A DNA stretch of 64,000 bases from Gemmatimonadota bacterium. GTDB taxonomy: Bacteria; Gemmatimonadota; Gemmatimonadetes; Gemmatimonadales; GWC2-71-9. The translations under genes and the position numbers were made by a program. The notes under the pieces were generated by a model. That model was not told where the DNA came from. It was given only the letters and a program-made list of their open reading frames with translations, and did no database searches. Position 1 is the first letter of the stretch, and every line of letters starts with the position of its first letter. The stretch is taken from contig JBDHBX010000003.1 of assembly GCA_039592335.1 (NCBI GenBank), positions 131,056 to 195,055 on the forward strand, written 5' to 3'. Positions 8,786 to 45,341 of this stretch are shown here, in pieces.

Positions 8786-8799
8786 GGATGGAGGTACGC

Positions 8800-9501: not shown

Positions 9502-9513
9502 TAACATAGGCGC

Positions 9514-10296: not shown

Positions 10297-10961
10297 CGGC
10301 GCCGCTCTGCTTCGAGGACGTGGCCCTGCCGGGACTCGGCTCCCGGATCACGCTGGAGGTACCGGAGCACCGGGCGGTCGTGGTCACCGGCCCCGAGGCA
10401 AGCGGGGTGGACGCTCTGCCCGGGTACGCCCTGGCCCTCAGGCCCCCAGCGGCCGGCCGCGTGCTGCTCTTCGGGGAGGACGTGGCCGGCCTGTCGCGCC
10501 GCGACGCGCTCGCCTTCCGGCGGCAAGTGGGGTATTTGCCCGCCGGTGACGGCCTGCTGCACAACCTCTCCCTGCGGGACAACGTCGCCCTGCCCCTGCG
10601 CTACGGCAGCGACCTCACCGAGCGCGAGATCGACGGCCGCATCCGGATCATGCTGACGATGGTCAAGCTGCCCGACGCGCCGGACCTCCGGCCCGCCGAG
10701 GCCACCGAGGAACAGCGCCGGCGGACGGCCCTCGCGCGGGCGCTGGCGTTCGACCCCCACCTGGTGATCCTGGCCGACCCGTTCGACGGCTTGCCCACCC
10801 GGGCCGCCGCCGAGCTGCTGGAGCTTGCGCGAGGTGGGGAGACCGGGACAGGTTCGAGGCGCACCGTGTTCATGACGGGGCAGTTCATCCCCCAGCTGCT
10901 CGAGTCGCGGGTCGAGGTGCGGTACCGCCTCGCCAAGGGCGCGCTCGTGCGCGACACGTGA
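10293..10961 (+). CDS. MlaF-like ABC nucleotide-binding-domain protein with degenerate catalytic motifs (predicted pseudo-ATPase)
   Basis: ATGA overlap with mlaE. ABC fold is alignable, but Walker A reads GPEASGVD, signature ATEEQ, Walker B VILADP and H-switch MTGQ. Confidence 0.75.
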   Translation: MTAPLCFEDVALPGLGSRITLEVPEHRAVVVTGPEASGVDALPGYALALRPPAAGRVLLFGEDVAGLSRRDALAFRRQVGYLPAGDGLLHNLSLRDNVALPLRYGSDLTEREIDGRIRIMLTMVKLPDAPDLRPAEATEEQRRRTALARALAFDPHLVILADPFDGLPTRAAAELLELARGGETGTGSRRTVFMTGQFIPQLLESRVEVRYRLAKGALVRDT

Positions 10962-11013
10962 GCGGGAGGTAGCCACGGGACGCACCGATTTCCTCGTCGG
11001 GCTCTTCATCCTC

Positions 11014-13826: not shown

Positions 13827-13829
13827 GCC

Positions 13830-15356
13830 TCAGGGAGTCCCCCAGCCCCCTCCCCCCGGCGTCTCGACCTGCAGCACGTCCCCAGACTTCATCGTGAGCG
13901 CCACGCGCCCTCCCAGCGGCTCGCCATTGAGCGTGTTGCGGCCTGGGGCTCCGGGCTCCCCTCCGGCGGCCCCCTGTGGCGCGCGGCGACGGCGCTCGCT
14001 GATCACGCTCACCTCCACCTCCGTGAGCGCCTGGTAGGCACGGATCACCCCTTCTCCGCCGCGACGCTGCCCGGCGCCGCCACTGGAGGAGCGGCGAGCG
14101 TACGTCACGATCCGCATGGGGTGTTCCAGCTCGAACACCTCCACCGGCGTGTTGCGGGTGTTGGACATGCCGACGTGCACGCCCGACGGCCCGGACGCTC
14201 CCGGTGAGGCACCCTGCCCCCCCCCGAGCGTCTCATAGTACGTCCACCCGTCGCCGCCGAGCACCACGTTGTTCATCGTGCCCTGCCCCTGGGCGGCGAG
14301 GTCGGCCGCCTCGGCGAGCGCGAGAAACAGCGTGTCAGTGATCCGCTGCGACGTCTCCACGTTCCCGGCGGCGACCGCCCGGGGCCACGGTGCGTTCACC
14401 AGGGATCCCTCGGGGGCCCACACCGTCACGGCGCGGTGCATCCCGCCGTTGGTTGGGATGTCCTCGTCCACCAGGCACCGCAGCACGAACAGCACGGCTG
14501 AGCGCGTGACCGAGAGCGGGCAGTTCACGTTGCCGGCGGCGGCCGCCGCGGTGCCGGCGAAGTCCACCTTCAAGCCGGCGTCGGTGACTTCCACCGTCAC
14601 ACGGATCGGGATGTCCTCTTCGGTGACGCCGTCGCCCTCGAGCCAATCCTCGGCACCGTAGCGACCCGGCCGGACACGCGCGGCGATGGCCGCCCCCGTG
14701 CGCCGCTCGGCGTAGTCGAGCAGATCGCGTACCGCACCCTCCACGTAACCACGACCGTGGCGCTCGATGAGCTCGCGGTAGCGCGCGGCGCCCCGTTCGC
14801 ACGCCGCGAGCTGCGCGGCGAGGTCGCCCCGACGCATGTCGGGCGTGCGCACATTGGCAAGGAGCAGCTGCTCCACGTCCCGTTGCACGGCCCCCCGCGC
14901 GGTCCACTTGACCGGCGGGATGACGAGGCCTTCCTGGAAGATCTCCGTCGAGTGGGGCGGCATGCTCCCCGGACGCGAGCCGCCGACATCGGAGTGGTGG
15001 GCCCGCACCACGGTGTAGGCGGCTACGGCTCCGTCCACCTCCACCGCATGGACCATCGTGATGTCGGGGAGGTGGGTGCCACCGGTGTACGGATCGTTCA
15101 ACACGAACGTGTCGCCGGGCTCGGGATTCAGTCTGCGTACCGCCGACACCGCTTCCGGCATCGCCCCTAGGTGCACCGGGATGTGCGCCGCCTGGGCGAT
15201 CATCTCGCCGTCGGCGCTGAACACGGCTGCCGAAGAGTCCCGCCGCTCGCGCACATTGGGGGAGAGCGCGGTGGCCACCAACACCGCGCCCATTTCCTCC
15301 GCGAGGCCGGAGAACGCGTGGGCCATGACCTCGAGGCCGATAGCGTCCAGCGTCAT
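13830..15356 (-). CDS. Hydantoinase B/oxoprolinase-family protein
   Basis: Length and conserved blocks (NDPYTGGTHLPD, GGGGWGTP at the C-terminus). ATGA overlap with the upstream HyuA-type gene. Confidence 0.85.
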   Translation of the reverse strand: MTLDAIGLEVMAHAFSGLAEEMGAVLVATALSPNVRERRDSSAAVFSADGEMIAQAAHIPVHLGAMPEAVSAVRRLNPEPGDTFVLNDPYTGGTHLPDITMVHAVEVDGAVAAYTVVRAHHSDVGGSRPGSMPPHSTEIFQEGLVIPPVKWTARGAVQRDVEQLLLANVRTPDMRRGDLAAQLAACERGAARYRELIERHGRGYVEGAVRDLLDYAERRTGAAIAARVRPGRYGAEDWLEGDGVTEEDIPIRVTVEVTDAGLKVDFAGTAAAAAGNVNCPLSVTRSAVLFVLRCLVDEDIPTNGGMHRAVTVWAPEGSLVNAPWPRAVAAGNVETSQRITDTLFLALAEAADLAAQGQGTMNNVVLGGDGWTYYETLGGGQGASPGASGPSGVHVGMSNTRNTPVEVFELEHPMRIVTYARRSSSGGAGQRRGGEGVIRAYQALTEVEVSVISERRRRAPQGAAGGEPGAPGRNTLNGEPLGGRVALTMKSGDVLQVETPGGGGWGTP

Positions 15357-33358: not shown

Positions 33359-33952
33359 CTACGCCGCCTGGAGGCCGATGTCGGGCTTCACGTAGCCCAT
33401 CTCGATCGCGTAGCCGAACAGCTTCTTCTGGAGGAACTGCCGCGCCCGGTGGATCCGTGACTTCACGGTGCCCAGCGGCGCCCCCGTCTCCCGAGCGATC
33501 ACCGCGTAAGGCAGCCCGTCCATGTCGCTCATCAGGAGCGCCTGCTTGTACTCCGCCGGCAGCTCGTCCATGGCCTGAACGATCTCGTCGTCCACCAACC
33601 CATTGAAGAAGTCACGCTCCGGGTCAGGAGCGTCCCCCCGGTTCAGGATCATGAACGACTCCATGTCCTCCACGCTCATGCGGTCCACCTCGCGCTTGCG
33701 CCGGCGGTACTCGTTGATGAACGAGTTGCGGAGGATCGTGGCCAGCCACGCCCGTACGTTCGAGCCGGCATCGAAGCGGTGCCAGTTGCTGTGCGCCCGC
33801 AGCATCGTCTCCTGCACCAGGTCTTCGGCCATGGCGGGCTCACCGCTCAGGCGCAAGGCAAACCGGTAGAGGAACTCCGAGTGCGGCATCGCCAGGTCCT
33901 CGAAGATCGGCGGTGCGACCGCCATGGGAATCTCCGTGGCAACAGCGGTCAT
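33359..33952 (-). CDS. ECF-type sigma-70 family factor
   Basis: Region 2 LVQETMLRAHSNWHRFD..RAWLATILRN.FINEYRR and region 4 LPAEYKQALLMSDMDGLPYAVIARETGAPLGTVKSRIHRAR. ATG 33952 overlaps the STAS stop (ATGA). Confidence 0.85.
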   Translation of the reverse strand: MTAVATEIPMAVAPPIFEDLAMPHSEFLYRFALRLSGEPAMAEDLVQETMLRAHSNWHRFDAGSNVRAWLATILRNSFINEYRRRKREVDRMSVEDMESFMILNRGDAPDPERDFFNGLVDDEIVQAMDELPAEYKQALLMSDMDGLPYAVIARETGAPLGTVKSRIHRARQFLQKKLFGYAIEMGYVKPDIGLQAA

Positions 33953-34218
33953 AACGGCTCCTTCTGTCCCAGGAGGGCGCCAAGAAAGGGTGCGGCGTGC
34001 ACGACCTCGAACTGATCGCTCGGCAGCTCGCGGAGCATCGCGATGCCGTGCCGGTCGATCGCGGCCACGTCGGCGAAGTCGAGCTGCACCCGGCGCCCAA
34101 CGTCGATCTGCTCGCGGCACTCCTGCTCGAGCAGGCTGACGGCGTCGCCTTGAATTCGCCCCTCCACCTTGAGAGTGATCTGCGGGGGCAGTTCGGCGAG
34201 TCGGGTAATGCGCAGCAC
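33949..34218 (-). CDS. STAS-domain protein (anti-sigma-antagonist-like, lacks phosphorylatable Ser)
   Basis: 89 aa. LKVEGRI.GDAV..L......VQLDFADVAAIDRHGIAMLREL matches STAS topology. GTG start with AAGGA 7 nt upstream. Confidence 0.6.
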   Translation of the reverse strand: MLRITRLAELPPQITLKVEGRIQGDAVSLLEQECREQIDVGRRVQLDFADVAAIDRHGIAMLRELPSDQFEVVHAAPFLGALLGQKEPL

Positions 34219-34255
34219 GCTCCGGTCCTTGGCAGTGGGTTCGCTACTCCTTTAT

Positions 34256-34271
34256 AGCAGACCACGTGCCA
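34256..34271 (-). promoter_or_regulatory. Sigma-54 (-24/-12) promoter upstream of the STAS-ECF-SnoaL operon
   Basis: The minus strand reads TGGCACGTGGTCTGCT (GG-N10-GC, TGGCAC-N5-cTGCt), about 38 nt upstream of the STAS start and directly downstream of a sigma-54 EBP gene. Confidence 0.65.
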
Positions 34272-34333
34272 CACCGAGCCGGACGGTCACGATTCGTCTA
34301 AACAGTTGGAAAAGAAATACTTACAAGACATGA

Positions 34334-34357
34334 CGGCCGGGCAATCGGACCCGGCCG
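34334..34357 (-). terminator. Candidate terminator hairpin after the EBP gene
   Basis: CGGCCGGG-N8-CCCGGCCG. On the minus strand it is followed by UCAUGUCUUGUAAGUAUUUCUUUUCC (U-rich, but not immediately adjacent). Confidence 0.4.
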
Positions 34358-34372
34358 CGAACACAGTACTTA

Positions 34373-34400
34373 CGATATTTCGTCAGGCGACGAAATATCG
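34373..34400. promoter_or_regulatory. Perfect AT-rich inverted repeat, candidate enhancer (UAS) for the sigma-54 promoter
   Basis: CGATATTTCGTC-aggc-GACGAAATATCG. Arms are 12 bp. The centre lies about 120 bp upstream of the -24/-12 element. Confidence 0.45.
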
Positions 34401-34416
34401 GTGGCGCACCATCTCA

Positions 34417-36318
34417 TCAGGCGCCGCCGTTACGCACGATCCCCAGCTTCTTCATGCGCGCCTGGAGCGTCGTGGGCTTCATCCCCAGGATGCGGGCGGC
34501 GCCCTTGGGCCCGCTCACCCGCCAGCTGGTGTGCTCCAGCGCGCTCAGGATATGGCGCCGCTGCACCTCGTCCAGCGTCAGGAGCGCACCCTCGGCAGCC
34601 ACCGGTCCCGACTCCCGCAGCCACTCGCCCAGCTCCAGCTCGGTCTCCGGGCTCACGATCACGGCGCGCTCGATCACGTTCTCGAGTTCCCGTACGTTGC
34701 CCGGCCACACATAGCTCTTGAGCGCGTTCATCGCCCGCTGCGGCACGGTCTCGATTGTCTTCCCCATCCGCTTAGCGTACTTCTGCACGAAGTAGTTCAC
34801 CAGGACCGGGATGTCGCCCTTGCGGTTCCTGAGGGCCGGCACAGGGATCGGGTACACCTTGAGCCGGAAGTACAGGTCGGAGCGGAAACGCTGCTCCTCC
34901 ACGGCACGCTCGAGGTCCCGGTTGGTGGCCGCCATCACCCGCACGTCCACGGTGATCGACTTGCTGCCGCCCACGCGCTCGAACTCCCCGTCCTGCAGCA
35001 CTCGCAACAGCTTCACCTGGAGCTCCGCCGGTAGGTCGCCGATCTCGTCGAGGAAGATGCTGCCACCGTCGGCCAACTCGAAGCGCCCCTCCCGGCGCCG
35101 CGTCGCGCCGGTGAAGGCACCCTTTTCGTGCCCGAACAGCTCGCTCTCGATGAGGCCCGCGGAGAGCGCCGCACAGTTCACCTTCACGAGGACGCTGTCC
35201 TTGCGAGTGCTCGCCCCGTGGATCGCGCGCGCGACCAGTTCCTTGCCGGTGCCGGTCTCGCCCGTGATGAGCACGGTGGAGTCGGTCGCCGCCACCCGCT
35301 CGATGTCCCGGAACAGCTTCTTGATGTTGGTCGAGGCACCCACGATCTCCCCGAAGTTGTGCTCCATCTCGATCTCTTCCTGCAGGTACACCTTCTCGAG
35401 ACTGAGCTTGCGGCGCTGCTCCTCGCCCTGAACCCGCTCGGAGATGTCCCGGGCCAGGGCCAGCACCCGCTTCGTGCCCCCCTCCTCCAGCAGGCAGGTG
35501 CGCACCTCCACGGGGAATCGCGTGCCGTCCTTGCGGCGATGCAAGCCGGCGATCGTCGTGGGGCCGGACCGCTCGATCTCCTCCAGGTTGCGGCGCAGCC
35601 GCTCCGGCGAGAAACCCTCCCAGACGTCCCACACGCGCATCCTGCTCAACGCACCGCGGTGGTAGCCGCTGGAAACCACGGCGTGCTGGTTCACCTCCAC
35701 GATGCGGCCGTTCTGCTCGATGACGTAGATCGCGTCGGCGGCCCGCTCGACCAGGCGGCGGAAGCGCTCTTCACTCTCGCGCAGCTTCGCCTCCGCCTCC
35801 TTGCGTTGGGTCACGTCGCGCACCCAGGCGATGACCCGCCGCTCGCCCTCCATGTCCACCGCCGAGGCGGAGATCTCGGCCGCCAGCTTGGTGTGGTCCT
35901 TGGTGACGCAGCTGAGCTCATCAGTCCAGCCCATGCCGTCGCGCAGCACCCGGCGGGTGAAGTCCTGGAGCTGGCCCACCTCGTCGGGATGGATGGCGGA
36001 GACCGGCAGCCTCATGAGCTCCTCGCGCGTGTACCCGAGCAGCTCACAGGCCCGCGGATTGACGTCCAGGATCGCGCCACCCATTGGCTCGATGACGAAC
36101 AGGGCGTCATGCGAGTGCTCGAAGAAGCTGCGCAGGCGCTCCTCGCTCTTGCGCAATGCTTCCTCGGCCCGCTGCAGCACCTGGCGCGCTTCGCGCGACG
36201 CCTCGAACTGCACCTCGAGAACCTCGAGCTCCGAAAGGAGCTGCTCTCGGCTCTTGCGTCCGACCTTGGCCGGCTCGTCCGCGCGGACGGTGAATTCGCC
36301 GGTGTCGCCTGGGCTCAT
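34417..36318 (-). CDS. Sigma-54-dependent transcriptional activator with two PAS domains (PAS-PAS-AAA+-HTH), no receiver domain
   Basis: AAA+ [25 protein letters not shown]-terminal HTH ([21 protein letters not shown]). Two PAS-like segments. I prefer ATG 36318; the listed start is TTG 36345. Confidence 0.9.
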
Positions 36319-36607
36319 GGCTCGCTCATTCCCCCTCGGTCGCAATCTGACACGTCTGACAATATTTGGTAAGTTCCTCGCCGTTCAGGCAGGCTGCGCC
36401 GGTGTGGCGGCGCACGACGTAAGTCGTTACCCCATAGCACGTTTCGTCCATCAGCACCACCTGGGAACCCGACCGGACCCAGCCACGTTCTCGTATCCAA
36501 CCACGACGTGTTGGGCGGCCTCGCGGCCCTGTGAGGTTCTCGCTGGAGGGGTGAGCGAGCATCCACTGCTCGGCCTGACGCGTCGCGGCTTTTCCTCCCC
36601 GACCGAA

Positions 36608-36668: not shown

Positions 36669-38006
36669 TCACTCCTCCCGGGCCTTCGCCCGTGCCACCG
36701 CTTCCGCTTCCAGGGTCGACCTCACCGTGATGGTCTCCAGCCCGTGGGCCTTGGGACCGGTCTCCTGCTTGCGCAGCATCACCGCAAAGAGGAACCCGAG
36801 AACGCCCAACACCGAGAAGATCCACATGCCGGCGGCGTAGCCGCCCGGGTTGGCGGCGCTCGCCTCGAAGGCGTCGTTCGTCCTGCCGATGAGCCAGTTC
36901 ATCCCCGCAACACCGATCTGCTGCACCAGCGTCATCACGGCGTACCCGGTCCCGAGCCGGTTCTCGGGCACGATGTACGCGACGGCCGGCCACATCACCG
37001 CGGGAATGAGGGAGAATGCGAGGCCCATCATCACGACCGGCACGCCCAGCGGCACGAGCTGGTACGCCATCATCAAGTACACCGGCATGAGCAGGAACGA
37101 GCCCGCGGCCATGAACAGCGCACGCTTGCCGAACCGGTCCACCAGGAGGCCGAACAGCGGCGTCGCGATCATGGCGGAGAGCGGCAGGATGCTGTTCAAG
37201 CCACCGGCGCCCTCACGCGTGAGACCGTGGCCCTCGATGAAGAACTTGATGGCGAAGCTGCGGAACGGGAAGATCGCCGAGTAGAAGGTCACACAGAGCA
37301 GCACCACCAACCAGAACGACCGGTCGAAGCGGAACATGTCCTTCACGACGAGCCGGTCGATCTCGCCCCGCTCGCCCAGCGCGTAGCGCCGCCGGGCCCC
37401 CGTTTCCATCACGCCGTAGCCGATGGCCGGGACCACGCACAGCAGGCTCAGCACCGCAGCCACGATCAGCGGCCCCTGCCAGCCCGTGTAGGCGAAACCC
37501 GCCCAGCTGGGGGAGTTGTCGGCCGCGACCTGCCCCAGCCGCGCGAAGGTGAGGTTCAGCCCGAAGGCGAAACTCAGCTCCTTCCCCTTGAACCATTTGG
37601 CGAGCGCGGTCGTGATCGCCACGATGAGCGGCTCGGAGCCGATGCCGAGCAGGAAGCGGGCCGACAGCATGACCGACAGCTCGCCCGAGACGGCATTGAG
37701 AATCGCCGCGACGGTGCACAGGGCGCCGAAGAAGATGATGGAGATAACCGTACCGAACCGGTCGATCACGACACCGCCGATGAGCAGCACGATCACCGCG
37801 GCGATGCTGTACACCGAGTAGAGCTGGCCGATGTTCTCGTCGCTGAACCCCAGGTCGGCCTTGAGAATGTCGGCGATGGGCGCAACGGAATCGTAGACGT
37901 AGTAATTCCCGAACATCGCAAGGCTGACGACGACCAGCACCGCCCAGCGATAGAGCGTCGGCGGCGGTGGGCGCACCACGTCTGCGGCGGCTCGAGGTTC
38001 GGTCAT
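36669..38006 (-). CDS. MFS transporter
   Basis: 445 aa with about 12 predicted TM segments and MFS-type loop motifs (GGVVIDRFG, LVDRFGKR). Confidence 0.8.
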   Translation of the reverse strand: MTEPRAAADVVRPPPPTLYRWAVLVVVSLAMFGNYYVYDSVAPIADILKADLGFSDENIGQLYSVYSIAAVIVLLIGGVVIDRFGTVISIIFFGALCTVAAILNAVSGELSVMLSARFLLGIGSEPLIVAITTALAKWFKGKELSFAFGLNLTFARLGQVAADNSPSWAGFAYTGWQGPLIVAAVLSLLCVVPAIGYGVMETGARRRYALGERGEIDRLVVKDMFRFDRSFWLVVLLCVTFYSAIFPFRSFAIKFFIEGHGLTREGAGGLNSILPLSAMIATPLFGLLVDRFGKRALFMAAGSFLLMPVYLMMAYQLVPLGVPVVMMGLAFSLIPAVMWPAVAYIVPENRLGTGYAVMTLVQQIGVAGMNWLIGRTNDAFEASAANPGGYAAGMWIFSVLGVLGFLFAVMLRKQETGPKAHGLETITVRSTLEAEAVARAKAREE

Positions 38007-38122
38007 GCGCGCGATCCTTTGGGCGTCGACACCGGTTTCTGACAGACGAGAAGTGTTGGGAGGTGATGCGGGCCCAAGTATGGGCCGGCGGCCGCGCGAG
38101 CGCCAGCCGCGGGCCAGCTCCC

Positions 38123-39613
38123 TCAGACCGTGACGGGGAGACCCTGCTCTCGCGCGTACCGCATCAGTTGGCGCACCCCGCCCTTGAACGAATAGGCCTC
38201 GTAGCCCTCCCGCTGCATGACTTCGGCGACGTAGGCGGTCTGCACGCCAAAGCTGCAGTAGAGTACGTAGGTCCTGGTCTTGTCCAGGCTCTTGAAGTGC
38301 GCCGCCAGATCGGTGATGTCGCGCTGTTCGGCGCCGGGATAGTGCCAGTGCTGGAAGTGGTGGGGCTCGCGACAGTCAAAGACCACGGCACCGTCGAGGA
38401 TCTCCGCGGCGAAGAGGTAGGGCTGGACCAGATCCACATCCTGAAGCGCCCGTAGATCCAGCGTCTTCCGCTCAGCGACCGCATGCTGCAGCAAGGAGAG
38501 GTCGACGTGTGATTCCTCGTCGCGCGCCGCGGCCGGCTTCGCATGCGTCACCGGCCGGTCGGGCAGAATGGCGCAGTACTCCCGCACGTGCGCGCTCAGC
38601 ACGGCCGTGCCGATCCGCTCGGCCAGCGCGATGATCTCGAGCTTGTCGAGCCCGAGCAACGGCCGGAACACGGGCAGCGAGGCCACCTCATCGATGGCGC
38701 GCAGGTTTCCCAGGGTCTGCGAGGAGACCTGCCCCACCGCCTCCCCGGTGATCACGGCCTCGCCTCGGATGTCCTGCGCGACCGCCTCACCGGCGCGATA
38801 CATGAGCCGTTTGAGCACGACCTGCCAGTACTTCGGCTGGACCTCCTCTTTGAGGTCGTCCACCACGGGCACGAATTCCACCACGTGGATGCGCGGCTGA
38901 TCCCCGAAGCTCCACTCGTCGGCCAGGATCTTGGCCACCGACACCACGGCGCGCTCGTACGCCTCCCCACCGAGGTTGCAGAACACGTAGTCGAGGGAGA
39001 TGCCGCGTTTGAGCATGAGCCACGCAGCCACCGCCGAGTCGAACCCGCCGGAAATGAGGCACACGGCCTTCCCCTCGACGCCGAGCGGAAGCCCCCCGGC
39101 CCCTGGCTCCCGGCCACTGTAGAGGAAGGCCTCCTCGTCGCGCACTTCCACCGCAACGGTAACGTCGGGATGATCGAGGTCGACCGACGCGGCATGGCGG
39201 TCCAGCGCGGCGCCGAGCCGCACCTTGATGTCTTGCGCGGTGAACGGATGCGTACCGACGCGGCGCGCGCGCACCGCGAATTTCCGGTCCCGCACCCGAT
39301 CGGCGAACAGCGACTCGCCGGCGCGCACGATCTCGTCGAGGTCGGCGGCCAGCCGCGCCTCGACCTCGGACACGCTGCTCACCCCGAACACCGCCGCTAG
39401 GCGCTTGAGCGCGGAGCGATCGGACGCCTCCACCAGAATGCGGCTCCAGCGCGCGTCGATTCGGGAATCGATGTTGGCGGCGGCGAGCGCATCGCGCATG
39501 TTGTGCACGAGCCGCTGCTGAAAGCGTCGGCGGGTCCTGCGCGCCTTGGTGGCGACTTCGGGCGCCACGCGAACCAGGAAGAGCGTGTAGTCAGGCGTCG
39601 CCTTCGACGTCAT
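38123..39613 (-). CDS. thiI: tRNA 4-thiouridine(8) synthase ThiI with C-terminal rhodanese domain
   Basis: THUMP-like N-terminal region, PP-loop CLISGGFDSAVAAW, and rhodanese with catalytic Cys (LYCSFGVQT). Confidence 0.9.
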   Translation of the reverse strand: MTSKATPDYTLFLVRVAPEVATKARRTRRRFQQRLVHNMRDALAAANIDSRIDARWSRILVEASDRSALKRLAAVFGVSSVSEVEARLAADLDEIVRAGESLFADRVRDRKFAVRARRVGTHPFTAQDIKVRLGAALDRHAASVDLDHPDVTVAVEVRDEEAFLYSGREPGAGGLPLGVEGKAVCLISGGFDSAVAAWLMLKRGISLDYVFCNLGGEAYERAVVSVAKILADEWSFGDQPRIHVVEFVPVVDDLKEEVQPKYWQVVLKRLMYRAGEAVAQDIRGEAVITGEAVGQVSSQTLGNLRAIDEVASLPVFRPLLGLDKLEIIALAERIGTAVLSAHVREYCAILPDRPVTHAKPAAARDEESHVDLSLLQHAVAERKTLDLRALQDVDLVQPYLFAAEILDGAVVFDCREPHHFQHWHYPGAEQRDITDLAAHFKSLDKTRTYVLYCSFGVQTAYVAEVMQREGYEAYSFKGGVRQLMRYAREQGLPVTV

Positions 39614-39664
39614 GTACCGAAGGTACGCTGCGTCTGGGGGGATTCCAAGCGAGGTGCGAAGGGC

Positions 39665-40132
39665 TTACGGGCCCGCGAAGATCGCGCTGATCCGCCGCGC
39701 TCGATAGTCGAAGATCGCGTCGAGCTGCCGCCGCACCATGATGGCGTGTGCCGCCAGCCCCATCGGCCCGAGCGGCAGCGCGTACTCGACGCGGTCCGAC
39801 ACCTGGACGCCTTCGACCACGGGGCGGAAGGTGTGCAGGTGATACCACGACTTGTACGGCCCCACCACCATTTCGTCGGCGAAGCACACGTTCGAAACGA
39901 AGCGGTCGATGCGCGACTCCCACCGCATCGGGAGACCGAGCCAGCGGATGCGGTAGCGAATGCGTGTGCCCTCGCGAACGGCCGCATCGGACGCCCACTG
40001 CACCTGGAAGTTGAGCCACGAGGGGGTGATCTCGGCGAGGTTACGCGGGTTCTGGAAGAACGCGAAGACATCGTCGAGGTCGGCCGGCACGATCTGGGTG
40101 CGCGACAGCACGAACCGCTTGCCGTTCTTCAT
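39665..40132 (-). CDS. SRPBCC (START/Bet v1-like) family protein
   Basis: 155 aa. VFAFFQNPRNLAEITP...W.H.H.F pattern. ATG 40132 overlaps the photolyase stop (ATGA). The listed 351-aa version is a spurious extension. Confidence 0.7.
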   Translation of the reverse strand: MKNGKRFVLSRTQIVPADLDDVFAFFQNPRNLAEITPSWLNFQVQWASDAAVREGTRIRYRIRWLGLPMRWESRIDRFVSNVCFADEMVVGPYKSWYHLHTFRPVVEGVQVSDRVEYALPLGPMGLAAHAIMVRRQLDAIFDYRARRISAIFAGP

Positions 40133-41607
40133 GGCGCCAGCGCCTCTGCGCCGTAGCGCTCGAGATACGGCCGCACACGCAGCTTGCGCGCCGTGTTCTG
40201 CGAGCTCATGTAGCGCACATTGCCGAACACCGGCCGCTCCGGCCCCCAGGCGCGATCGTAGCGGCCCAGCACCCAGAAGATCCCCGAGTACGAGTTCGGA
40301 TCGCGACCGTCCAGCGCATACTTGTTGTTGAGCTCGACCATGAAGTGCAGCGCCTCCTCGGGCGAGGCCGACCACTCCAGGATCTTCTTGCCCCACAGCA
40401 TGCGCAGGTAGTTGTGCACCTGCCCCTCGCGCAGCAGCTGGCGCTGCGCCGCGTTCCACAACTCGTCGTGCGTGGCCGCCGTTTCGAACGCGGCGAGGTC
40501 GTAGCGGTATTCCCGCGGATCGCTGGCGTGGTCCGCCAGCGTCCGCCGAGCCCACTCCGGCAAGGAGTCGTAGCGGTCGTAGTCGGAGCGAAACGCGCAC
40601 ATGTTGTATCCCAGCTCGCGCCACGTGACCAGCTGATCCACGAAGGCGGTGGCGCTCTCTCGCATGCCCCACCCGGCACGGCCGCCCCTCGCCTCCGGCC
40701 TCAGCTCGTCGGGTGTCCACCCCTCGGTGTCCGCCACCCGCGCGAACAGCTCGTGGACGCCCAGGTGACCGAAGTGGAGGTACGGCGAGAGACCGCTGGT
40801 GCCCGGCTCACCGAGCTCGTTACGGCACTCCGCATAGTGCGGGAGCCGCTCGACGAGAAACCGGTCGACGGCCTCGAACGCGGCGCGGGGACCGCCCCGC
40901 AGCGCGGCCGGCGGCACGGCGTGATCGACCGGCAGCGCCGTCAGGGCCGCGGGCTCAACCGCCAGCAGCGCGGGAGGGGCCGCTGGCCAGCAATCGGTCA
41001 CGGCCCGATCGACACCGCCGAAGCGCGGTGCGTCGAGCGCCGCCACCGGATCCTCGAGCGGCCAATCCACGAGATGCTCTGAAAGCTCGCGGTGCAGAAA
41101 GCGGCGGAACTGATGCGCGGTCCCGAAGGCCCGGGGCGCTGCCCCGAGGGGGAGGAGCCCGTTGGCGTCCACGGCCTCGAGTTGGACAGGCACCCGCAAG
41201 GCAGCGGTGTCGAGCATGCGCGGGAGGAAGAACGCCGGGTTATCGTCGGTCACGATCACGGCGGCCGACCGCGCCAGGGTCTCCAACAGGCCCTTCCCCG
41301 CTCCCGGCTCCGGCTCGACGTAGGGAAGATAGCCGACCGGCCGCCCCGCGAGGGAAGCGGCGTGGTCCGCCATGCCCTGCAGTGCGAACGCGTGGAAGCG
41401 CTCGCTGGCCCAGGGGTAGTCCGCACGGAGCGCTTCCAGCACGAGCAGCGGCTGGCGAAGCTCGTTGGCCCACTCCACCGCCCGCTCGAGAGCGTAGTTC
41501 GCGGTGAGCCGCCGGTGTGCGGTCATCCAGTACAGCACAAACCGGCCTGCGCGGCGCGGCGATGCGTCGTTGGCAGCTCGGATGCGGATACCGGGAACGG
41601 GGCTCAT
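40129..41607 (-). CDS. phr: Class II CPD deoxyribodipyrimidine photolyase
   Basis: N-terminal FVLYWMTAHRRLTANYAL and C-terminal FAD-binding block WNAAQRQL..EG.VHNYLRMLWGKKILEW, typical of class II enzymes. The alternative start is GTG 41643. Confidence 0.9.
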   Translation of the reverse strand: MSPVPGIRIRAANDASPRRAGRFVLYWMTAHRRLTANYALERAVEWANELRQPLLVLEALRADYPWASERFHAFALQGMADHAASLAGRPVGYLPYVEPEPGAGKGLLETLARSAAVIVTDDNPAFFLPRMLDTAALRVPVQLEAVDANGLLPLGAAPRAFGTAHQFRRFLHRELSEHLVDWPLEDPVAALDAPRFGGVDRAVTDCWPAAPPALLAVEPAALTALPVDHAVPPAALRGGPRAAFEAVDRFLVERLPHYAECRNELGEPGTSGLSPYLHFGHLGVHELFARVADTEGWTPDELRPEARGGRAGWGMRESATAFVDQLVTWRELGYNMCAFRSDYDRYDSLPEWARRTLADHASDPREYRYDLAAFETAATHDELWNAAQRQLLREGQVHNYLRMLWGKKILEWSASPEEALHFMVELNNKYALDGRDPNSYSGIFWVLGRYDRAWGPERPVFGNVRYMSSQNTARKLRVRPYLERYGAEALAP

Positions 41608-41663
41608 GGACCTTTCGGGGGCGCCGCCGGAGGGCGACGCCACGAGACGAGTGCAGGTGAAAC

Positions 41664-41693
41664 GAGGGGCCGGCGGATCAGCGCCGACCCCTC
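41664..41693 (-). terminator. Hairpin after the fasciclin gene (weak or leaky terminator candidate)
   Basis: GAGGGGCCGGCG-gatca-GCGCCGACCCCTC (one mismatch). On the minus strand it is followed by GUUUCACC. The U-tract is short, so read-through into phr is plausible. Confidence 0.4.
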
Positions 41694-41706
41694 CTCAACC
41701 ATCAGG

Positions 41707-42216
41707 CTACCACTCGGGCAAGATCACCGTGTCGATCACGTGAATCACGCCGTTCGAGGCCTCCACGTCGGCCTTTACCACCTTGGCATCGTTCACGTAG
41801 ACCGAGCCGTACTTTACCTTGATCTTCACGTCGTGGCCATTCACCGTCGTCGCGCGGTCGAGCTCCACCGCCTGATCGGAGGTGACGCGGCCGGCCACCA
41901 CGTGGTACGTCAAGATTGCGGTCAACTTCTCCTTGTCCTCGAGCAACGCCTCGACGGTGCCCGCGGGCAGCTTAGCGAAGGCCTCGTCCGTCGGCGCAAA
42001 TACCGTGAACGGGCCCTCGCCCTTGAGCGTCTCGACCAGGCCCGCGGCCTGAAGCGCTGCCGCCAGCGTGTTGAACGAGCCGGTGGCGACCGCCACGTCT
42101 ACGATGTCGTCCGATGTGTAGCCGGCCGAGCTGCTCGAGTGCTTCATCTGGGCCTGGGCCGAGCCGGCGACCAAGAGGCCGGCGGCGACCAGGGTAGTGA
42201 GGGTGCGGAACTGCAT
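41707..42216 (-). CDS. Secreted fasciclin (FAS1) domain protein
   Basis: Signal peptide [25 protein letters not shown]1 motifs [10 protein letters not shown] and [16 protein letters not shown] lies 8 nt upstream of ATG 42216. Confidence 0.85.
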
Positions 42217-42276
42217 GATGGGTGCCTCCAAGAAGTGATGGGTAATGCGACTTGATCTATACGGAAGCCCGGCCAC

Positions 42277-42372
42277 CTAGCCGCGCGCTGGGGCGGAGAG
42301 CCGGCGGCGCTGGATCGCCCGCCACTGCAGGGCCTTGTACAGCACTGCGGCGACGATGTCCAGCTTGTTCAT
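42277..42372 (-). CDS. 31-aa mini-ORF (MNKLDIVAAVLYKALQWRAIQRRRLSAPARG), first cistron of the light-locus operon
   Basis: Strong SD GAGGAGG 5 nt upstream of ATG 42372. It lies downstream of the predicted minus-strand promoter. The 61-aa listed version would start inside the promoter/operator. Confidence 0.4.
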   Translation of the reverse strand: MNKLDIVAAVLYKALQWRAIQRRRLSAPARG

Positions 42373-42415
42373 TCTGACCTCCTCGAAACGCTTGACTGTC
42401 CAACCGACGTCCAAG

Positions 42416-42444
42416 AATGTATGTGATAGTCTAGGGTTTGTCAA
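42416..42444 (-). promoter_or_regulatory. Sigma-70-type promoter for the mini-ORF/fasciclin/photolyase transcription unit
   Basis: The minus strand reads TTGACA (42444-42439), a 17-nt spacer, then TACATT (42421-42416). Confidence 0.6.
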
Positions 42445-42482
42445 GTGAATGTCTAACGTCATATGTTGACAAGACTTAGACA
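42428..42482. promoter_or_regulatory. Candidate CarH/LitR operator: five TWGACW hexamers at 11-bp phasing, diverging from a centre near 42460
   Basis: Minus strand: TAGACT (42433-42428), TTGACA (42444-42439), TAGACA (42455-42450). Plus strand: TTGACA (42466-42471), TAGACA (42477-42482). Two of the five are the -35 hexamers of the divergent promoters. Confidence 0.55.
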
Positions 42483-42494
42483 GAATGATACTTT
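42466..42494 (+). promoter_or_regulatory. Sigma-70-type promoter of the CarH/LitR-like gene, predicting a leaderless mRNA
   Basis: TTGACA (42466-42471), a 17-nt spacer, then TACTTT (42489-42494). ATG 42502 is 7 nt after the -10 element and has no SD. Confidence 0.55.
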
Positions 42495-42501
42495 ATCGGC
42501 C

Positions 42502-43446
42502 ATGAGCGCACCGACTGGAAACCGCGAGCCACGCCATCCGATCCGGGTGGTCTCCCTGCGAACCGGCCTGTCCCCGGATGTCCTGCGGGTCTGGGAGCGG
42601 CGCTACGGCGTGGTCACCCCGCAGCGCAGCGAGGGCGGACAGCGACTGTATTCGGACGCCGACATCGAGCGCCTCGGCTTGCTGAATCGCGCCACCCAGG
42701 CCGGCCGAGCCATTCGGCAGGTGGCCGAGCTCCGCAACGAGGAGCTGGTCGCGCTGCTGGAGGAGGACGCCGCCGCCCGTGCCTCGGGCGCTTCGACGGC
42801 CCCCGGGACCCTCGGCGCAGCGCAGGACTACCTGGCCGGCGCGCTCACCGCGGTGGAGGCCCTGGACTCTGGACGGCTGCAGTTCGTGCTGAGGCAGGCC
42901 GTGTTCGGCCTGGGAGCCACGGACTTCGTGGATCACGTGCTCGCCCCCCTGCTCCGTCAGATCGGGGACCGTTGGCACCACGGCACGCTCACCCCAGCGC
43001 ATGAGCACGCCGCGTCCGTCATCGTCAGGCGCACGCTCCAATGGATGGAGGAGATCCTGGAGGTCCCCGGCTCGGCGCCGTTGATACTGGTGACGACGCC
43101 CGCCGGTGAGCGGCACGAGATGGGTGCCATTCTGGTGGGGGTGGTGGCTGGCACCGAGGGATGGCGCACGGTCCAGCTGGGACCCGACCTGCCTGCGGCC
43201 GACATCGCGGAGGCCGCGAGACAGGCCGGCGCCCACGCGGTGGCCGTGAGCAGCATCCGGGCAGACGATGCCGCGCGACTCCTGGCGGAACTCGAAGGAC
43301 TACGAGCGGCGCTGCCCGACGGGGTGGAGCTGCTGGTCGGGGGAGCGGCGACCGCGCCGCTGAGCCGCCGGATCGAGGCGATGGGAGCGCGGTACCTGGC
43401 CGGCTTCGACGAGCTCAGGCAGTACCTGCAGGACCTGCAGCGCTAG
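42502..43446 (+). CDS. CarH/LitR-family MerR-type regulator with C-terminal cobalamin-binding photoreceptor module
   Basis: MerR HTH (IRVVSLRTGLSPDVLRVWERRYG). Wx9EH motif (WHHGTLTPAHEH). B12-binding ExHxxG (GERHEMG) with downstream SS and VGG. The alternative start is ATG 42463. Confidence 0.85.
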   Translation: MSAPTGNREPRHPIRVVSLRTGLSPDVLRVWERRYGVVTPQRSEGGQRLYSDADIERLGLLNRATQAGRAIRQVAELRNEELVALLEEDAAARASGASTAPGTLGAAQDYLAGALTAVEALDSGRLQFVLRQAVFGLGATDFVDHVLAPLLRQIGDRWHHGTLTPAHEHAASVIVRRTLQWMEEILEVPGSAPLILVTTPAGERHEMGAILVGVVAGTEGWRTVQLGPDLPAADIAEAARQAGAHAVAVSSIRADDAARLLAELEGLRAALPDGVELLVGGAATAPLSRRIEAMGARYLAGFDELRQYLQDLQR

Positions 43447-43478
43447 CTACCCACCCCCCGTGGGCACAGCTCGTCCTG

Positions 43479-45341
43479 CTACAGATCCCGCGGCGACCGC
43501 ACACCCCCACCGGGCACCGATTCCACCTCTTCCGGCTGCGGTGTGTGGTCTTCCCCGGGGTTGATGAAGCGGTCGTGCTCGATGAGGTACTGCTTGTCGT
43601 ACAGCTGGCGGTAGCGGCCGCGCCTGGCGAGCAGTTCGTCGTGCGTGCCGCGCTCCACAATCTCCCCCTCCTCGAGCACCAGGATCTGATCGGCGCTGCG
43701 GATGGTGGAAAGACGGTGTGCGATCACGAACGAGGTTCGGCCATGCCGCAATGTGCGCAGGCCGTCCTGGATCATCGCCTCGCTCTCGCTGTCGAGGCTG
43801 GACGTCGCTTCGTCCAGAATCAGGATCCGGGGATCGGCGAGAATGGCCCGCGCGATGGCAATCCGCTGGCGCTGGCCACCCGACAGCTTGATGCCGCGCT
43901 CGCCCACGATCGTGTCGTAGCCGTCCTCGAACTCATCGATGAACACGTTCGCATGTGCGATGCACGCAACTTCCTTGATCTCGTCGAGCGTGGCGTGCGG
44001 CCGCGCAAACGCGATGTTCTCGGCGATGGTGCCGTCGAACAGGAAGTTGTCCTGTAGCACCACGCCGAGCAGGCCACGGTAGTCGCGCAGGGGAACCGTG
44101 CCGAGGTCGCGCCCGTCCACCGTGATCGTCCCGGCGTTCGGCTGGTTGAAGGCCATCGCCAGGGAGATCAGCGTGCTCTTGCCCGAGCCGCTCGATCCCA
44201 CCAGCGCGGTGGTGGAGCCGGCCGGCGCGCTGAACGACACGTTCTTGAGCACGGGGACGTCGGGGTTGTACTCGAACCACACGTCCTGAAAGCCGATCTC
44301 TCCGGCGATCTCCCCGAGCGGTTCCTTGTCCCAGTCCTTTTCCTCCTCGGTGGCCATACGCCGGATCTCGCGAATGCGGTCGAGGCCGGCGAAAGCCTCG
44401 CTGATCTGGGTACCGATCTCGGCGATGGATACGAGGGGCGCGGCCACCAGGCCGGTGAAGAAGATGAACATCACGAAATCGCCGAGCGTCATCGTGCCGT
44501 CGAGGATCGCCCGGCCACCCACCACGATCATGATCACACTGATCGCACCCACGATCGCCGTGGTGAACGCGCCGATCCCCGAGATCCCGGTGATCGCCTT
44601 GGCGATGTTGCGGAACAGGCGGTGCACCCCGCGGGCAAACACGAGCTGCTCTCCCCGCTCGGCGACGTAGGCCTTCACGACGCGCACGCCGCCCAGGGAC
44701 TCGGCCAGCCGGCCCGTGACCTCGGCGTTGATCTTCCCCCGCTGGCGGAAGATGGGCCGCAGCCTGTTGAACGCGACCGCCATCGCCCCACCGAACGTGA
44801 CAAGCACAATGAGGATGACCGCCGTGAGCTTCCAGTTGAGCACGAACAACACGGCAAGCGCGATGGCGGCCGTCACCAGGCCGCCGGTAAGCCGGACCAA
44901 GCCGGTGCCGACCAGGTTCCGGATTCCCTCGGCATCAGTCATGATGCGGGAGATGAGCACGCCGGTCTTAGTGGAGTCGAAGTAGCTCACGGGCAGCCGG
45001 CTCACGTGCGCCTGCACCGCCTTGCGCATATCGGCGATGGCGCGCTGAGCGGTCACCCCGAGCACCTGGGCCAGTGCGAACGAGGTCGTCGCCTGCACCA
45101 GGGTGGCGCCGCCCACGGCGGCGGCCAGCGGAATGAGCAGCTCCGCCTTGCCCTGCCCGACCACGTCGTCAATCATGAATTTGGATGAGCCGGGAAGCAC
45201 GAGGCCCGCCAGCCGGTTCACGATCATGATCACCGCACCAAGGGCTAGACGGCGGCGGCGCGTCCAGATGACCTCACGCGCCTCGCGCCACACCTGTCCG
45301 AGGTCGAGCCTCTTCTTCTGTTGCGTCTTCTCGTCGGTCAC
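43479..45341 (-). CDS. ABC exporter, fused permease/ATPase (MsbA/multidrug type)
   Basis: Six-TM N-terminal half. Intact Walker A GSSGSGKST, signature LSGGQRQR, Walker B ILILDEATS and H-loop IAHRL. Confidence 0.9.
   Translation of the reverse strand: MTDEKTQQKKRLDLGQVWREAREVIWTRRRRLALGAVIMIVNRLAGLVLPGSSKFMIDDVVGQGKAELLIPLAAAVGGATLVQATTSFALAQVLGVTAQRAIADMRKAVQAHVSRLPVSYFDSTKTGVLISRIMTDAEGIRNLVGTGLVRLTGGLVTAAIALAVLFVLNWKLTAVILIVLVTFGGAMAVAFNRLRPIFRQRGKINAEVTGRLAESLGGVRVVKAYVAERGEQLVFARGVHRLFRNIAKAITGISGIGAFTTAIVGAISVIMIVVGGRAILDGTMTLGDFVMFIFFTGLVAAPLVSIAEIGTQISEAFAGLDRIREIRRMATEEEKDWDKEPLGEIAGEIGFQDVWFEYNPDVPVLKNVSFSAPAGSTTALVGSSGSGKSTLISLAMAFNQPNAGTITVDGRDLGTVPLRDYRGLLGVVLQDNFLFDGTIAENIAFARPHATLDEIKEVACIAHANVFIDEFEDGYDTIVGERGIKLSGGQRQRIAIARAILADPRILILDEATSSLDSESEAMIQDGLRTLRHGRTSFVIAHRLSTIRSADQILVLEEGEIVERGTHDELLARRGRYRQLYDKQYLIEHDRFINPGEDHTPQPEEVESVPGGGVRSPRDL

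Follow-up and report, generated by a model that had tools for sequence, protein, structure and literature searches.

A predicted CarH-type light-sensing locus with fasciclin and photolyase output in a Gemmatimonadota genome

Described light- and oxidant-responsive regulons

The closest described counterparts of the locus presented here are the CarH (class I LitR) systems of Thermus thermophilus, Myxococcus xanthus and Bacillus megaterium. CarH proteins combine a MerR-type DNA-binding domain bearing an RxWERRY motif, a four-helix bundle whose Wx9EH motif caps the Ado group of adenosylcobalamin (AdoCbl) and a Rossmann-type B12 motif, and their operators comprise three or four tandem 11-bp repeats (nnnnTnnACAn) that include the -35 TTGACA (PMC9304148). 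Wx9EH separates CarH from the B12-independent CarA, from which it is missing; the histidine after the tryptophan contacts the Ado group (PMC9304148). The present locus shares these elements, together with a regulator gene lying divergently beside its targets and probable autorepression. It differs in having no linked carotenoid gene, its output being DUF378–FAS1 plus SRPBCC and photolyase, in having two opposed repeat sets for two back-to-back promoters, with an extra repeat pair at one transcription start, and in the apparently leaderless mRNA of the regulator.

Two further regulons bear comparison. The targets of Pseudomonas class II LitR (PplR/PmlR) include photolyase, furan-fatty-acid synthase, FolE and proteins of unknown function, with neither fasciclin nor DUF378 among those named in the available part of the source (PMC9758184). 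MerR-family light regulation is common to both systems, and loci related to ours place CMAS, amine oxidase, DUF1365, DUF1295, desaturase and FolE genes under the operator found here, but class II LitR lacks the B12-binding Rossmann domain and depends on a LOV protein, whereas the regulator described here has the full AdoCbl module. In Rhodobacter (Cereibacter) sphaeroides, the sigma-E/ChrR targets described in the available parts of the sources include photolyase, the fatty-acid-modifying RSP1087-1091 and the periplasmic fasciclin Fdp (RSP1409), a direct sigma-E target (PMC3546557, PMC7074977); DUF378 is not mentioned in those parts. This gene set parallels that of our locus, and Fdp is the nearest solved single-domain relative of the fasciclin encoded there. 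Control is different, however, with an ECF sigma/anti-sigma pair sensing singlet oxygen in R. sphaeroides and, as predicted here, a direct B12 photoreceptor-repressor. By analogy, the regulon of our locus may be the functional counterpart of both the sigma-E/ChrR and the proteobacterial class II LitR regulons.

A fourth point of reference is the algal carotenoid-binding FAS1 protein AstaP, which shares with our fasciclin a single secreted FAS1 domain and is itself induced by photo-oxidative stress. The residues that line its hydrophobic tunnel are conserved across many members of the FAS1 family, although carotenoid binding is regarded as a green-algal neofunctionalisation and P74615 of Synechocystis, the one bacterial homologue put to the test, showed no zeaxanthin binding in vitro (PMC10147662).

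The features listed below lie in a 64-kb stretch of DNA (the window), which was analysed as a whole. Those named in the original prediction were all found in the positions that it had given them.

38123-39613, minus strand: ThiI tRNA 4-thiouridine synthase with C-terminal rhodanese domain (TIGR00342, 293.8 bits against a cut-off of 264.5)
39614-39648, minus strand: thiI promoter, leaderless (shared by the window and L001-L005, with a variable spacer)
39665-40132, minus strand: SRPBCC protein, a helix-grip, ligand-binding fold (Pfam Polyketide_cyc)
40129-41607, minus strand: class II CPD photolyase, 492 aa (TIGR00591, class II structures, gene call)
41612-41650, minus strand: second hairpin, immediately upstream of the photolyase ribosome-binding site (-20.7 kcal/mol, z -3.5; also in L001 and L002)
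41655-41697, minus strand: first hairpin, G+C-rich, just past the fasciclin stop codon (-27.9 kcal/mol, z -4.3)
41707-42216, minus strand: secreted single-domain fasciclin (FAS1) protein, 169 aa (Pfam Fasciclin, 150 bits)
42277-42372, minus strand: 31-aa ORF, remnant of a DUF378 gene (alignment with L001, L002 and L060; GGAGG Shine-Dalgarno)
42397-42455, minus strand: fasciclin-operon promoter and operator (promoter scan 10/12, 17-nt spacer; repeat positions)
42466-42494, plus strand: regulator promoter (sequence reading; layout kept in about 45 loci)
42502-43446, plus strand: predicted CarH-type (class I LitR) AdoCbl-dependent light-sensing repressor, 314 aa (Pfam, alignment with T. thermophilus CarH, motifs)

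The regulator and its operator

Pfam identifies MerR_1 (53 bits), MerR (34.5 bits) and B12-binding_2 (35 bits) domains in the regulator as well as a B12-binding domain (33.4 bits against a cut-off of 32.1), so that both B12 domains whose confirmation had been called for are present, and independent gene calls agree on a 314-aa protein. CarH is by a wide margin its top NCBIfam family, with a score of 146 bits that falls under the equivalog cut-off of 400 (NF052513), a strict model that appears to be tuned to near kin of characterised CarH proteins. The alignment with T. thermophilus CarH (5c8d) is full-length (E 5e-35) and pairs GERHEMGA of the regulator with GERHEIGA. Regular-expression searches placed RVWERRY, the RxWERRY recognition-helix motif, at residues 29-35, the Wx9EH stretch WHHGTLTPAHEH at residue 158 (its counterpart in 5c8d is WHRGEIGVAEEH) and the B12 motif ERHEMG-x41-SSI-x27-GG at residue 203. 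The last of these agrees with D/ExHx2G/P-x41-SxT/V-x22-27-GG except that the SxT/V position reads SxI, with isoleucine instead of threonine or valine. With Wx9EH and ExHxxG both intact, the CarH/LitR-type assignment first made from these two motifs holds as a prediction, all of the sequence hallmarks of the type being present, and from this we infer that the protein binds AdoCbl and responds to light.

Might the protein bind a corrinoid but sense B12 availability or redox, or be CarA-like and need a partner antirepressor? Regulators with B12-binding domains and other inputs do exist, CarA among them (PMC9304148), and the score below the curated CarH cut-off would fit. Against this, the Wx9EH motif that CarA lacks (PMC9304148) is not only intact here but invariant in 60/60 regulator homologues, and the targets found across related loci (photolyases, furan-fatty-acid-like genes, FolE and CrtI) are all related to light or singlet oxygen. 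We regard such a non-light input as scarcely probable. No genes for B12 uptake or synthesis were seen in the window.

The regulator is transcribed divergently from the minus-strand array, as originally described, and the 129 bp between the two carry seven 11-bp TnnACA repeats over two back-to-back consensus promoters. In the regulator promoter the -35 box (TTGACA, 42466-42471) is itself a repeat and a second one (TAGACA, 42477-42482) lies inside the 17-nt spacer; the -10 box (TACTTT, 42489-42494) is 7 nt from the ATG, and the mRNA is probably leaderless. This layout (TTGACA-N5-TrGACA, -10 TAnnnT, N7, ATG) recurs at about 45 loci. On the fasciclin strand, DR1 (TAGACA, 42455-42450), DR2 (TTGACA, 42444-42439, the -35 box) and dr3 (TAGACT, 42433-42428) stand in 11-bp register, followed by the -10 box (TACATT, 42421-42416) and by two start-site repeats, dr4 (TGGACG, 42413-42408) and DR5 (TGGACA, 42402-42397). 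A CarH operator is defined by at least three tandem 11-bp repeats that overlap a -35 or -10 box of the promoter under control, and the region contains such an array.

All four matches of the window to TGTCNA-N5-TGTCNA (with at most one mismatch) fall within 42397-42482, and the composite operator/promoter pattern occurs at 24 of 67 related loci and on 120 metagenome contigs but at none of the shuffled loci, which places the arrangement well above chance. Moreover, the layout is kept base-for-base in register across regulators that are merely 41-81% identical. These observations support the prediction of a CarH-type operator covering both -35 boxes and the fasciclin transcription start. The two repeat sets run in opposite directions, unlike the single same-direction array of the TtCarH–DNA structure, implying more than one oligomer or some other geometry.

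Taken together, the domains, motifs and operator make it likely that the locus is an AdoCbl-dependent light switch of the CarH/class I LitR type governing a photo-oxidative-stress and UV-repair regulon. If the regulator behaves as its family does, then in the dark the AdoCbl-loaded protein would oligomerise and bind the 11-bp TnnACA direct repeats; one set, spread over the -35 box and spacer of the leaderless regulator promoter, would bring about autorepression, whilst the opposite set would cover the -35 box of the strong divergent promoter, with a further pair at its transcription start. Light would photolyse AdoCbl and release the repressor from the DNA, allowing both promoters to fire. The divergent transcript would then encode the DUF378 remnant, the fasciclin and, by read-through of the two hairpins, the photolyase and its coupled SRPBCC protein.

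The divergent gene array

The first gene of the array had been taken for a mini-ORF unexpected in a promoter-proximal position. DUF378 proteins (PF04070) are small membrane proteins whose domain of about 60 residues has two predicted membrane helices. Alignment with L001, L002 and L060 shows that the 31-aa ORF is a relic of such a gene, from which an in-frame internal deletion of 126 nt has removed 42 codons of the domain core, leaving the GGAGG ribosome-binding site, the first 10 codons and the last 20. Relatives that retain the whole gene reach 69-86 bits with PF04070; the remnant itself has no Pfam match and lacks a recognisable DUF378 domain. DUF378 is a recurrent first gene at related operators. 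At least 16 contigs, drawn from four or more samples, have exactly this ORF and, judged by this recurrence, the deletion is fixed in the population. A novel small gene, considered as another identity for the ORF, was ruled out by the same alignment.

The fasciclin that follows matches PF02469 with 150 bits against a cut-off of 22, over profile positions 2-123 of 123, and has an N-terminal Sec-type signal peptide with cleavage after AQA, as judged by eye. Among solved single-domain proteins it is closest to R. sphaeroides Fdp (1w7d, E 2e-38); the match to the AstaP structure (8c18; 59 bits, E 5e-15) reflects general FAS1 similarity. To our knowledge, bacterial FAS1 proteins have no known ligand. 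Fasciclins induced by light or singlet oxygen are on record in Rhodobacter, Synechocystis and Mycobacterium kansasii (PMC3546557, PMC7074977, bioRxiv 10.1101/2023.09.22.558817, PMC9861118).

The hairpin beyond the fasciclin gene had been called weak; with a 12-bp G+C stem and a fold that no shuffle among 200 equalled, it is instead strong, although its U tract is weak. A hairpin of different sequence occupies the same place in L001-L005, so that structure is conserved across six genomes, and the element is possibly a partial terminator or an RNA-stabilising element. Strong and conserved as it is, it could stop most transcripts short of the photolyase gene, with an effect on the stoichiometry of the products.

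The photolyase probably starts at ATG 41607, on which independent gene calls agree. TIGR00591 (phr2) is its top family, at 356 bits and under the cut-off of 550; at E<=1e-5 its PDB matches are to class II enzymes only (2xry, 8oet, 5o8d and 3umv, E 5e-75 to 3e-61, residues 9-487). These full-length matches bear out the class II assignment over class I, DASH and 6-4 enzymes. The gene is coupled to that for the SRPBCC protein by an ATGA overlap with its stop codon, as had been noted; the AlphaFold model of the latter (pLDDT 92) has generic START/Bet v 1 structural matches.

A sigma-70 consensus scan found no further promoter-like site and no canonical terminator from 42416 to 39665, and the 99-nt fasciclin–photolyase gap in particular shows neither a promoter-like site nor a conserved -35/-10 motif. 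These results bear on an unlikely but credible arrangement in which the switch controls the DUF378 remnant and fasciclin only, the first hairpin being an efficient terminator and photolyase–SRPBCC being expressed from an unrecognised promoter of their own. The stability of that hairpin, its structural conservation in six genomes and the second hairpin next to it would all fit, as would the weak U tract, a poor tract being common in intrinsic terminators of high-G+C bacteria, and a photolyase promoter could escape a sigma-70 consensus scan. The gap is nevertheless devoid of a promoter motif, unlike the clearly conserved starts of thiI and the regulator, and at L008, L019 and L066 the photolyase gene carries the operator or is promoter-proximal, which places photolyase in the regulon generally. 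We therefore infer an operon extending to SRPBCC, in which the hairpins would probably reduce expression of photolyase and SRPBCC relative to fasciclin.

The original prediction had carried the light/UV unit one gene further. ThiI, identified by its ThiI_fer, THUMP, ThiI and Rhodanese domains (Pfam), is encoded 51 nt downstream of SRPBCC, and read-through could raise its expression in light and so link tRNA s4U photochemistry to the switch. The common orientation, the short gap, the lack of any scored terminator and the synteny in six genomes are all compatible with this. However, thiI has its own promoter (-35 TTGGAA, 39648-39643; 17-nt spacer; -10 TACCTT, 39625-39620; 6 nt to the ATG), and TTGGAA-N17-TACCTT-N6-ATG is found in all six of these genomes, conservation around a variable spacer being the signature of an independent leaderless start. 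No TnnACA repeat pairs occur at this promoter, and the six genomes (the window and L001-L005) form one clade, thiI being missing at the approximately 60 other genome loci as well as on the metagenome contigs with the recurrent genes. Light control of thiI is accordingly distinctly unlikely: we judge the gene, from its promoter and distribution, to be a constitutively promoted neighbour and a separate transcription unit, and the s4U/near-UV idea is left without comparative support. The operator over both -35 boxes supports a photoprotective unit under the regulator, one without thiI.

Conservation of the output and its meaning

Comparison with around 190 related loci showed the fasciclin, originally thought an unexpected target, to be the rule and not an oddity among genes divergent from homologues of the regulator. 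FAS1 lies divergent from the regulator within 1.5 kb at 32 of 56 informative genome loci, making it the most conserved partner in the clade, and FAS1, SRPBCC, DUF378 or photolyase adjoins the regulator at 42 of the 56. An operator-only metagenome scan gave DUF378 (53) or FAS1 (27) as the first gene on about 80 of 104 real contigs, counts that are biased toward these genes because the search pattern was derived from fasciclin-type promoters. A CarH-like gene lies divergently upstream on 74 of the 120 metagenome operator contigs.

The four genes are shuffled in order but retain their linkage to the regulator, and class II photolyase is sometimes replaced by a class I-type enzyme, as at L066 (photolyase–DUF378–FAS1, reading away from the regulator) and L015 (SRPBCC–DUF378–FAS1–photolyase). 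At L008 and L019, unlinked fasciclin and photolyase genes each have their own copy of the operator. SRPBCC adjoins the regulator in many lineages and at L072 heads a furan-fatty-acid-like cluster (regulator, SRPBCC, DUF2177, desaturase, amine oxidase, DUF1365, CMAS, DUF1295); FolE also falls under the same operator at related loci. Carotenoid genes were absent from the sampled ORFs of the window, as had been stated, and nearly all related loci are without a linked one, a single CrtI-family case (L197) being found among about 100 operator contigs.

A further, frankly speculative possibility, which we consider a long shot, is that DUF378, FAS1 and SRPBCC serve in light-induced handling of lipophilic photoprotectants in the cell envelope. 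Under this reading a START-like SRPBCC protein in the cytoplasm and a FAS1 protein in the periplasm, perhaps docking onto the DUF378 membrane protein, would bind and move carotenoids or oxidised or furan lipids. Silkworm BmCBP, a water-soluble carotenoid carrier, has the START (SRPBCC) fold. Both folds thus have eukaryotic carotenoid-carrier precedents, AstaP for FAS1 and BmCBP for SRPBCC, and the regulator family classically controls carotenogenesis. If true, this would provide a molecular function for bacterial fasciclins such as Fdp and sll1483.

Whilst the kind of regulator is itself known, a conserved DUF378–FAS1 output of a CarH-type regulator is not known to have been described before. 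Gene linkage suggests that the conserved core output of this regulator clade is an envelope module of DUF378 and FAS1 rather than carotenoid synthesis.

The regulator and its operator

The regulator is, by all sequence criteria, a CarH-type photoreceptor. Its alignment with CarH of T. thermophilus (5c8d; E 5e-35) covers the full length of the protein, with the Wx9EH and ExHxxG motifs in register, and its best NCBIfam family is CarH, at 146 bits against a strict cut-off of 400. The RxWERRY, Wx9EH and B12 motifs of CarH have been defined previously (PMC9304148); here, the recognition helix reads RVWERRY at residue 29, the Wx9EH motif WHHGTLTPAHEH lies at residue 158 and ERHEMG-x41-SSI-x27-GG begins at residue 203. 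An intact Wx9EH separates AdoCbl-dependent CarH from B12-independent CarA (PMC9304148), and the motif is kept in all 60 of the 60 readable homologues. The original prediction of a CarH/LitR-type regulator with both motifs is upheld, as is its expectation of B12-binding_2 and B12-binding domains. All the features it listed (regulator, 31-aa ORF, fasciclin, photolyase, SRPBCC and ThiI) are present.

Features of the locus (window positions)
42502-43446, +: regulator, matching MerR_1, B12-binding_2 and B12-binding
42477 and 42466, +: regulator-strand repeats TAGACA and TTGACA (the latter the -35 box), read from the sequence
42455, 42444 and 42433, -: fasciclin-strand repeats TAGACA, TTGACA (the -35 box) and TAGACT, in exact 11-bp register
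42421-42416, -: fasciclin promoter -10 box TACATT, ending a 17-nt spacer
42413 and 42402, -: start-site repeats TGGACG and TGGACA, over the expected fasciclin transcription start
42277-42372, -: 31-aa ORF with a GGAGG ribosome-binding site
41707-42216, -: fasciclin protein (150 bits)
51 nt beyond the SRPBCC gene, -: ThiI with rhodanese domain (domain and family matches)

Window G+C content is 62-72%, and the closest relatives are Gemmatimonadota metagenome-assembled genomes whose regulators are at most 81% identical. Independent metagenome gene calls give the same starts for the regulator (314 aa), fasciclin (169 aa) and photolyase (492 aa). An ABC exporter gene (ABC_membrane and ABC_tran; 43479-45341, -) converges on the regulator, 32 nt from its stop codon, a synteny limited to the closest clade (L001-L006).

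A CarH operator is built of 11-bp repeats (nnnnTnnACAn), three or four in tandem, and one of them includes the -35 sequence TTGACA (PMC9304148). The intergenic region here is read as such an operator, superimposed on two back-to-back promoters. The two repeat sets are oppositely oriented, which suggests that more than one oligomer may bind. On the regulator side, the -10 box (TACTTT, +) lies only 7 nt from the ATG, implying a leaderless mRNA; this leaderless layout is kept in around 45 loci (upstream regions of L001-L062). A two-repeat pattern matches the window four times, each time inside 42397-42482, and a promoter scan of 37900-43600 returned no further promoter-like site. The same operator and promoter layout is found, in register, 5' of around 45 homologous regulators, whilst a strict composite pattern (operator plus promoter elements) matches once in the window, in 24 of 67 related loci and never in shuffled sequence. 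So compact and well defined an element could serve for light-controlled expression.

The divergent genes

Alignment of the window with two loci of the closest clade (L001 and L002) reveals an internal deletion of exactly 126 nt (42 codons) in a DUF378 gene of 73 aa, the 31-aa ORF retaining the ribosome-binding site and the first 10 and last 20 codons, in frame. Intact relatives match PF04070 with 69-86 bits; the ORF itself has no Pfam match. The identical ORF recurs in at least four samples, on 16 or more contigs, which rules out an assembly artefact and indicates that the deletion is real and fixed in the population. The alignment likewise favours a deletion remnant over a leader peptide or a new small protein. 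The mini-ORF of the original prediction is therefore present as listed but is a DUF378 relic rather than a novel gene, a lesson for annotation. The normal operon would be DUF378-fasciclin, with DUF378 lost from the window's species.

Among single-domain proteins of solved structure, R. sphaeroides Fdp (1w7d; E 2e-38) is nearest to the fasciclin protein. The photolyase has class II enzymes as its only solved relatives (E 1e-74), confirming the predicted class, and the SRPBCC start codon overlaps the photolyase TGA as ATGA, so that the proposed coupling also holds. The SRPBCC protein matches no PDB sequence; its confident model (pLDDT 92) gives matches of a generic kind alone, to START, Bet v 1, PYL and TcmN-cyclase structures, from which no specific ligand can be assigned, and a homologue search reached close Gemmatimonadota relatives but not other phyla.

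How far transcription extends from the fasciclin promoter turns on the fasciclin-photolyase gap. A hairpin lies 3' of the fasciclin stop codon (12-bp G+C stem, -27.9 kcal/mol, z -4.3), with hairpins of differing sequence at the same place in L001-L005, the clade sharing the window's synteny. A second (41612-41650, -; -20.7 kcal/mol), also present in L001 and L002, sits just 5' of the photolyase ribosome-binding site, where it might affect translation or read-through. Both hairpins lack a good U tract, and the scan scored no canonical terminator. Partial read-through, leaving fasciclin levels above those of photolyase and SRPBCC, is what we infer from this arrangement. The photolyase could instead be expressed from a separate promoter of unrecognised type, given the hairpins that precede it; the gap holds no conserved promoter motif, and we judge this rather unlikely. 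Read-through from the fasciclin promoter remains the preferred reading.

The original prediction also suggested that thiI belongs to a combined light/UV unit, and this part is not sustained. The 51-nt gap before thiI contains TTGGAA-N17-TACCTT-N6-ATG. These elements are shared by the window and L001-L005, with a variable spacer, and are arranged for a leaderless start like that of the regulator. No TnnACA pair occurs there, and thiI linkage is limited to one clade among the genome loci and metagenome contigs listed. On these three grounds we conclude that thiI is probably an independent neighbour of the light locus; adjacency is insufficient to place it in a light regulon. Both thiI and the regulator seem to be leaderless, with a -10 box (TAnnnT) 6-7 nt 5' of the ATG and no Shine-Dalgarno sequence (39611-39648 and 42489-42504), unlike the DUF378 remnant and its fasciclin neighbour, which have strong GGAGG sites.

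Upstream of an MFS gene and thiI, 33359-36345 (-) holds an ORF for an ECF-type sigma factor and, overlapping, a small STAS-like ORF, together with the gene for a sigma-54 activator that has two PAS domains (only the activator was checked against Pfam); no link between this group and the light locus was found. The whole window has no tRNA and no Rfam match, and hence no cobalamin riboswitch.

Conservation of the linkage

Linkage in genomes was counted by tblastn over the 56 loci with at least 1 kb 5' of the regulator; all-against-all ORF clustering merged sense with antisense ORFs, inflating cluster counts. A fasciclin gene is divergent from the regulator within 1.5 kb in 32/56 loci, and fasciclin, SRPBCC, DUF378 or photolyase (any one) adjoins it in 42/56. 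The linkage persists despite changing gene order: the regulator diverges from photolyase-DUF378-fasciclin in L066 (Acidobacteriota) and from SRPBCC-DUF378-fasciclin-photolyase in L015. The photolyases beside DUF378 and fasciclin in these two loci (L066 1803-3320; L015 2-1384) are of class I type (PF00875 and PF03441), a non-orthologous enzyme in the slot held by class II in the window's clade.

In two loci (L008, L019) photolyase is divergent from a second fasciclin gene, with their own operator copy between them. In four others a second operator copy separates the gene for a DUF4397-repeat lipoprotein of around 700 aa from a divergent DUF2177-DUF1295 operon that also has a fatty-acid desaturase gene (L012 1417-1517, L016 4987-5045, L020 5495-5604, L022 5544-5602). 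The L072 regulator is the first gene of a co-oriented cluster with very short gaps (7033-14320), followed by SRPBCC-DUF2177-desaturase-amine oxidase-DUF1365-CMAS-DUF1295, in which the regulator and SRPBCC genes overlap, the desaturase is of the fatty-acid type and CMAS is a methyltransferase; it resembles the furan-fatty-acid/singlet-oxygen genes of Rhodobacter and Pseudomonas. Translations inspected by eye placed ccmA/C/F-like cytochrome c maturation genes past the regulator upstream region in a 12-locus subclade (L009, L010, L014, L027, L034, L036, L041, L042, L045, L047, L055, L062), with fasciclin in between in 10/12 and no fasciclin match in L010 and L034; this is probably unrelated synteny.

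Metagenomes were scanned with a pattern of operator and -35 elements only, excluding coding sequence, and at least 120 contigs matched. Among the matches listed, a CarH-like gene is divergent upstream in 74/120; 16 of the 120 are below 50% G+C, mostly tandem-repeat noise, and first genes were counted on the remainder.

First downstream gene among the metagenome matches listed (the pattern derives from fasciclin-type promoters, toward which counts lean)
DUF378: 53 contigs
Fasciclin: 27 contigs
UfaD-like amine oxidase: 6 contigs
DUF4397: 5 contigs
FtsH: 2 contigs (54-58% G+C; identified by eye only)
FolE: 1 contig
CrtI-family desaturase: 1 contig (L197)

Chance adjacency of fasciclin and regulator is ruled out by conservation across genome loci and metagenome contigs, with DUF378 and fasciclin commonest as first genes among the metagenome matches listed.

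B12-based CarH photoreceptors are mainly described as carotenoid-synthesis switches (PMC9758184, PMC9304148). A weak motif test on the ORFs lying up to 4.5 kb from the regulator, across 67 loci, revealed no crt-like cluster or signature, and 10 sampled large window ORFs included no carotenoid genes. The sole CrtI-family gene among the metagenome operator contigs listed is that of L197 (TIGR02734, 433 bits), preceded by the operator/promoter. The same element lies 5' of GTP cyclohydrolase I (FolE), FtsH (two contigs) and an unknown secreted protein (L144, L136, L190, L186). These contigs hint at lineage-specific regulon members.

Relation to known light responses

As a CarH/class I LitR switch the locus is unremarkable. 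Its target set resembles photo-oxidative-stress regulons under other regulators. In Pseudomonas, photolyase, furan-fatty-acid synthase and FolE are under class II LitR control (PMC9758184), and the direct targets of R. sphaeroides sigma-E/ChrR include the fasciclin Fdp/RSP1409 as well as a photolyase and genes for fatty-acid modification (PMC3546557, PMC7074977, PMC7561615). The fasciclin gene sll1483 of Synechocystis is singlet-oxygen-induced (bioRxiv 10.1101/2023.09.22.558817), and mpk83 and mpk70 of M. kansasii are light-induced (PMC9861118). Algal AstaP binds carotenoids; the Synechocystis homologue did not (PMC10147662). Our literature search returned no paper tying fasciclin to CarH or DUF378 to light. 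The locus is a further member of the CarH family. As far as could be found, its conserved output, in which photolyase and SRPBCC join an envelope module of DUF378 and fasciclin, has no earlier description. Overall, the original observation was sound and its interpretation holds in part, failing for thiI and the mini-ORF. The regulatory claims made here have a sequence and comparative basis.

Taken together, a CarH clade of Gemmatimonadota and some Acidobacteriota appears to be wired to a small membrane protein and a secreted fasciclin, not to carotenoid synthesis, with photolyase, SRPBCC and furan-fatty-acid-like genes added in varying combinations. In Rhodobacter, Synechocystis and mycobacteria, fasciclins recur among the genes that light or singlet oxygen induces. 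With a direct link to a photoreceptor readable from sequence in around 100 loci, the role of these proteins becomes testable, and the link suggests the cell envelope as a photoprotection target in bacteria.
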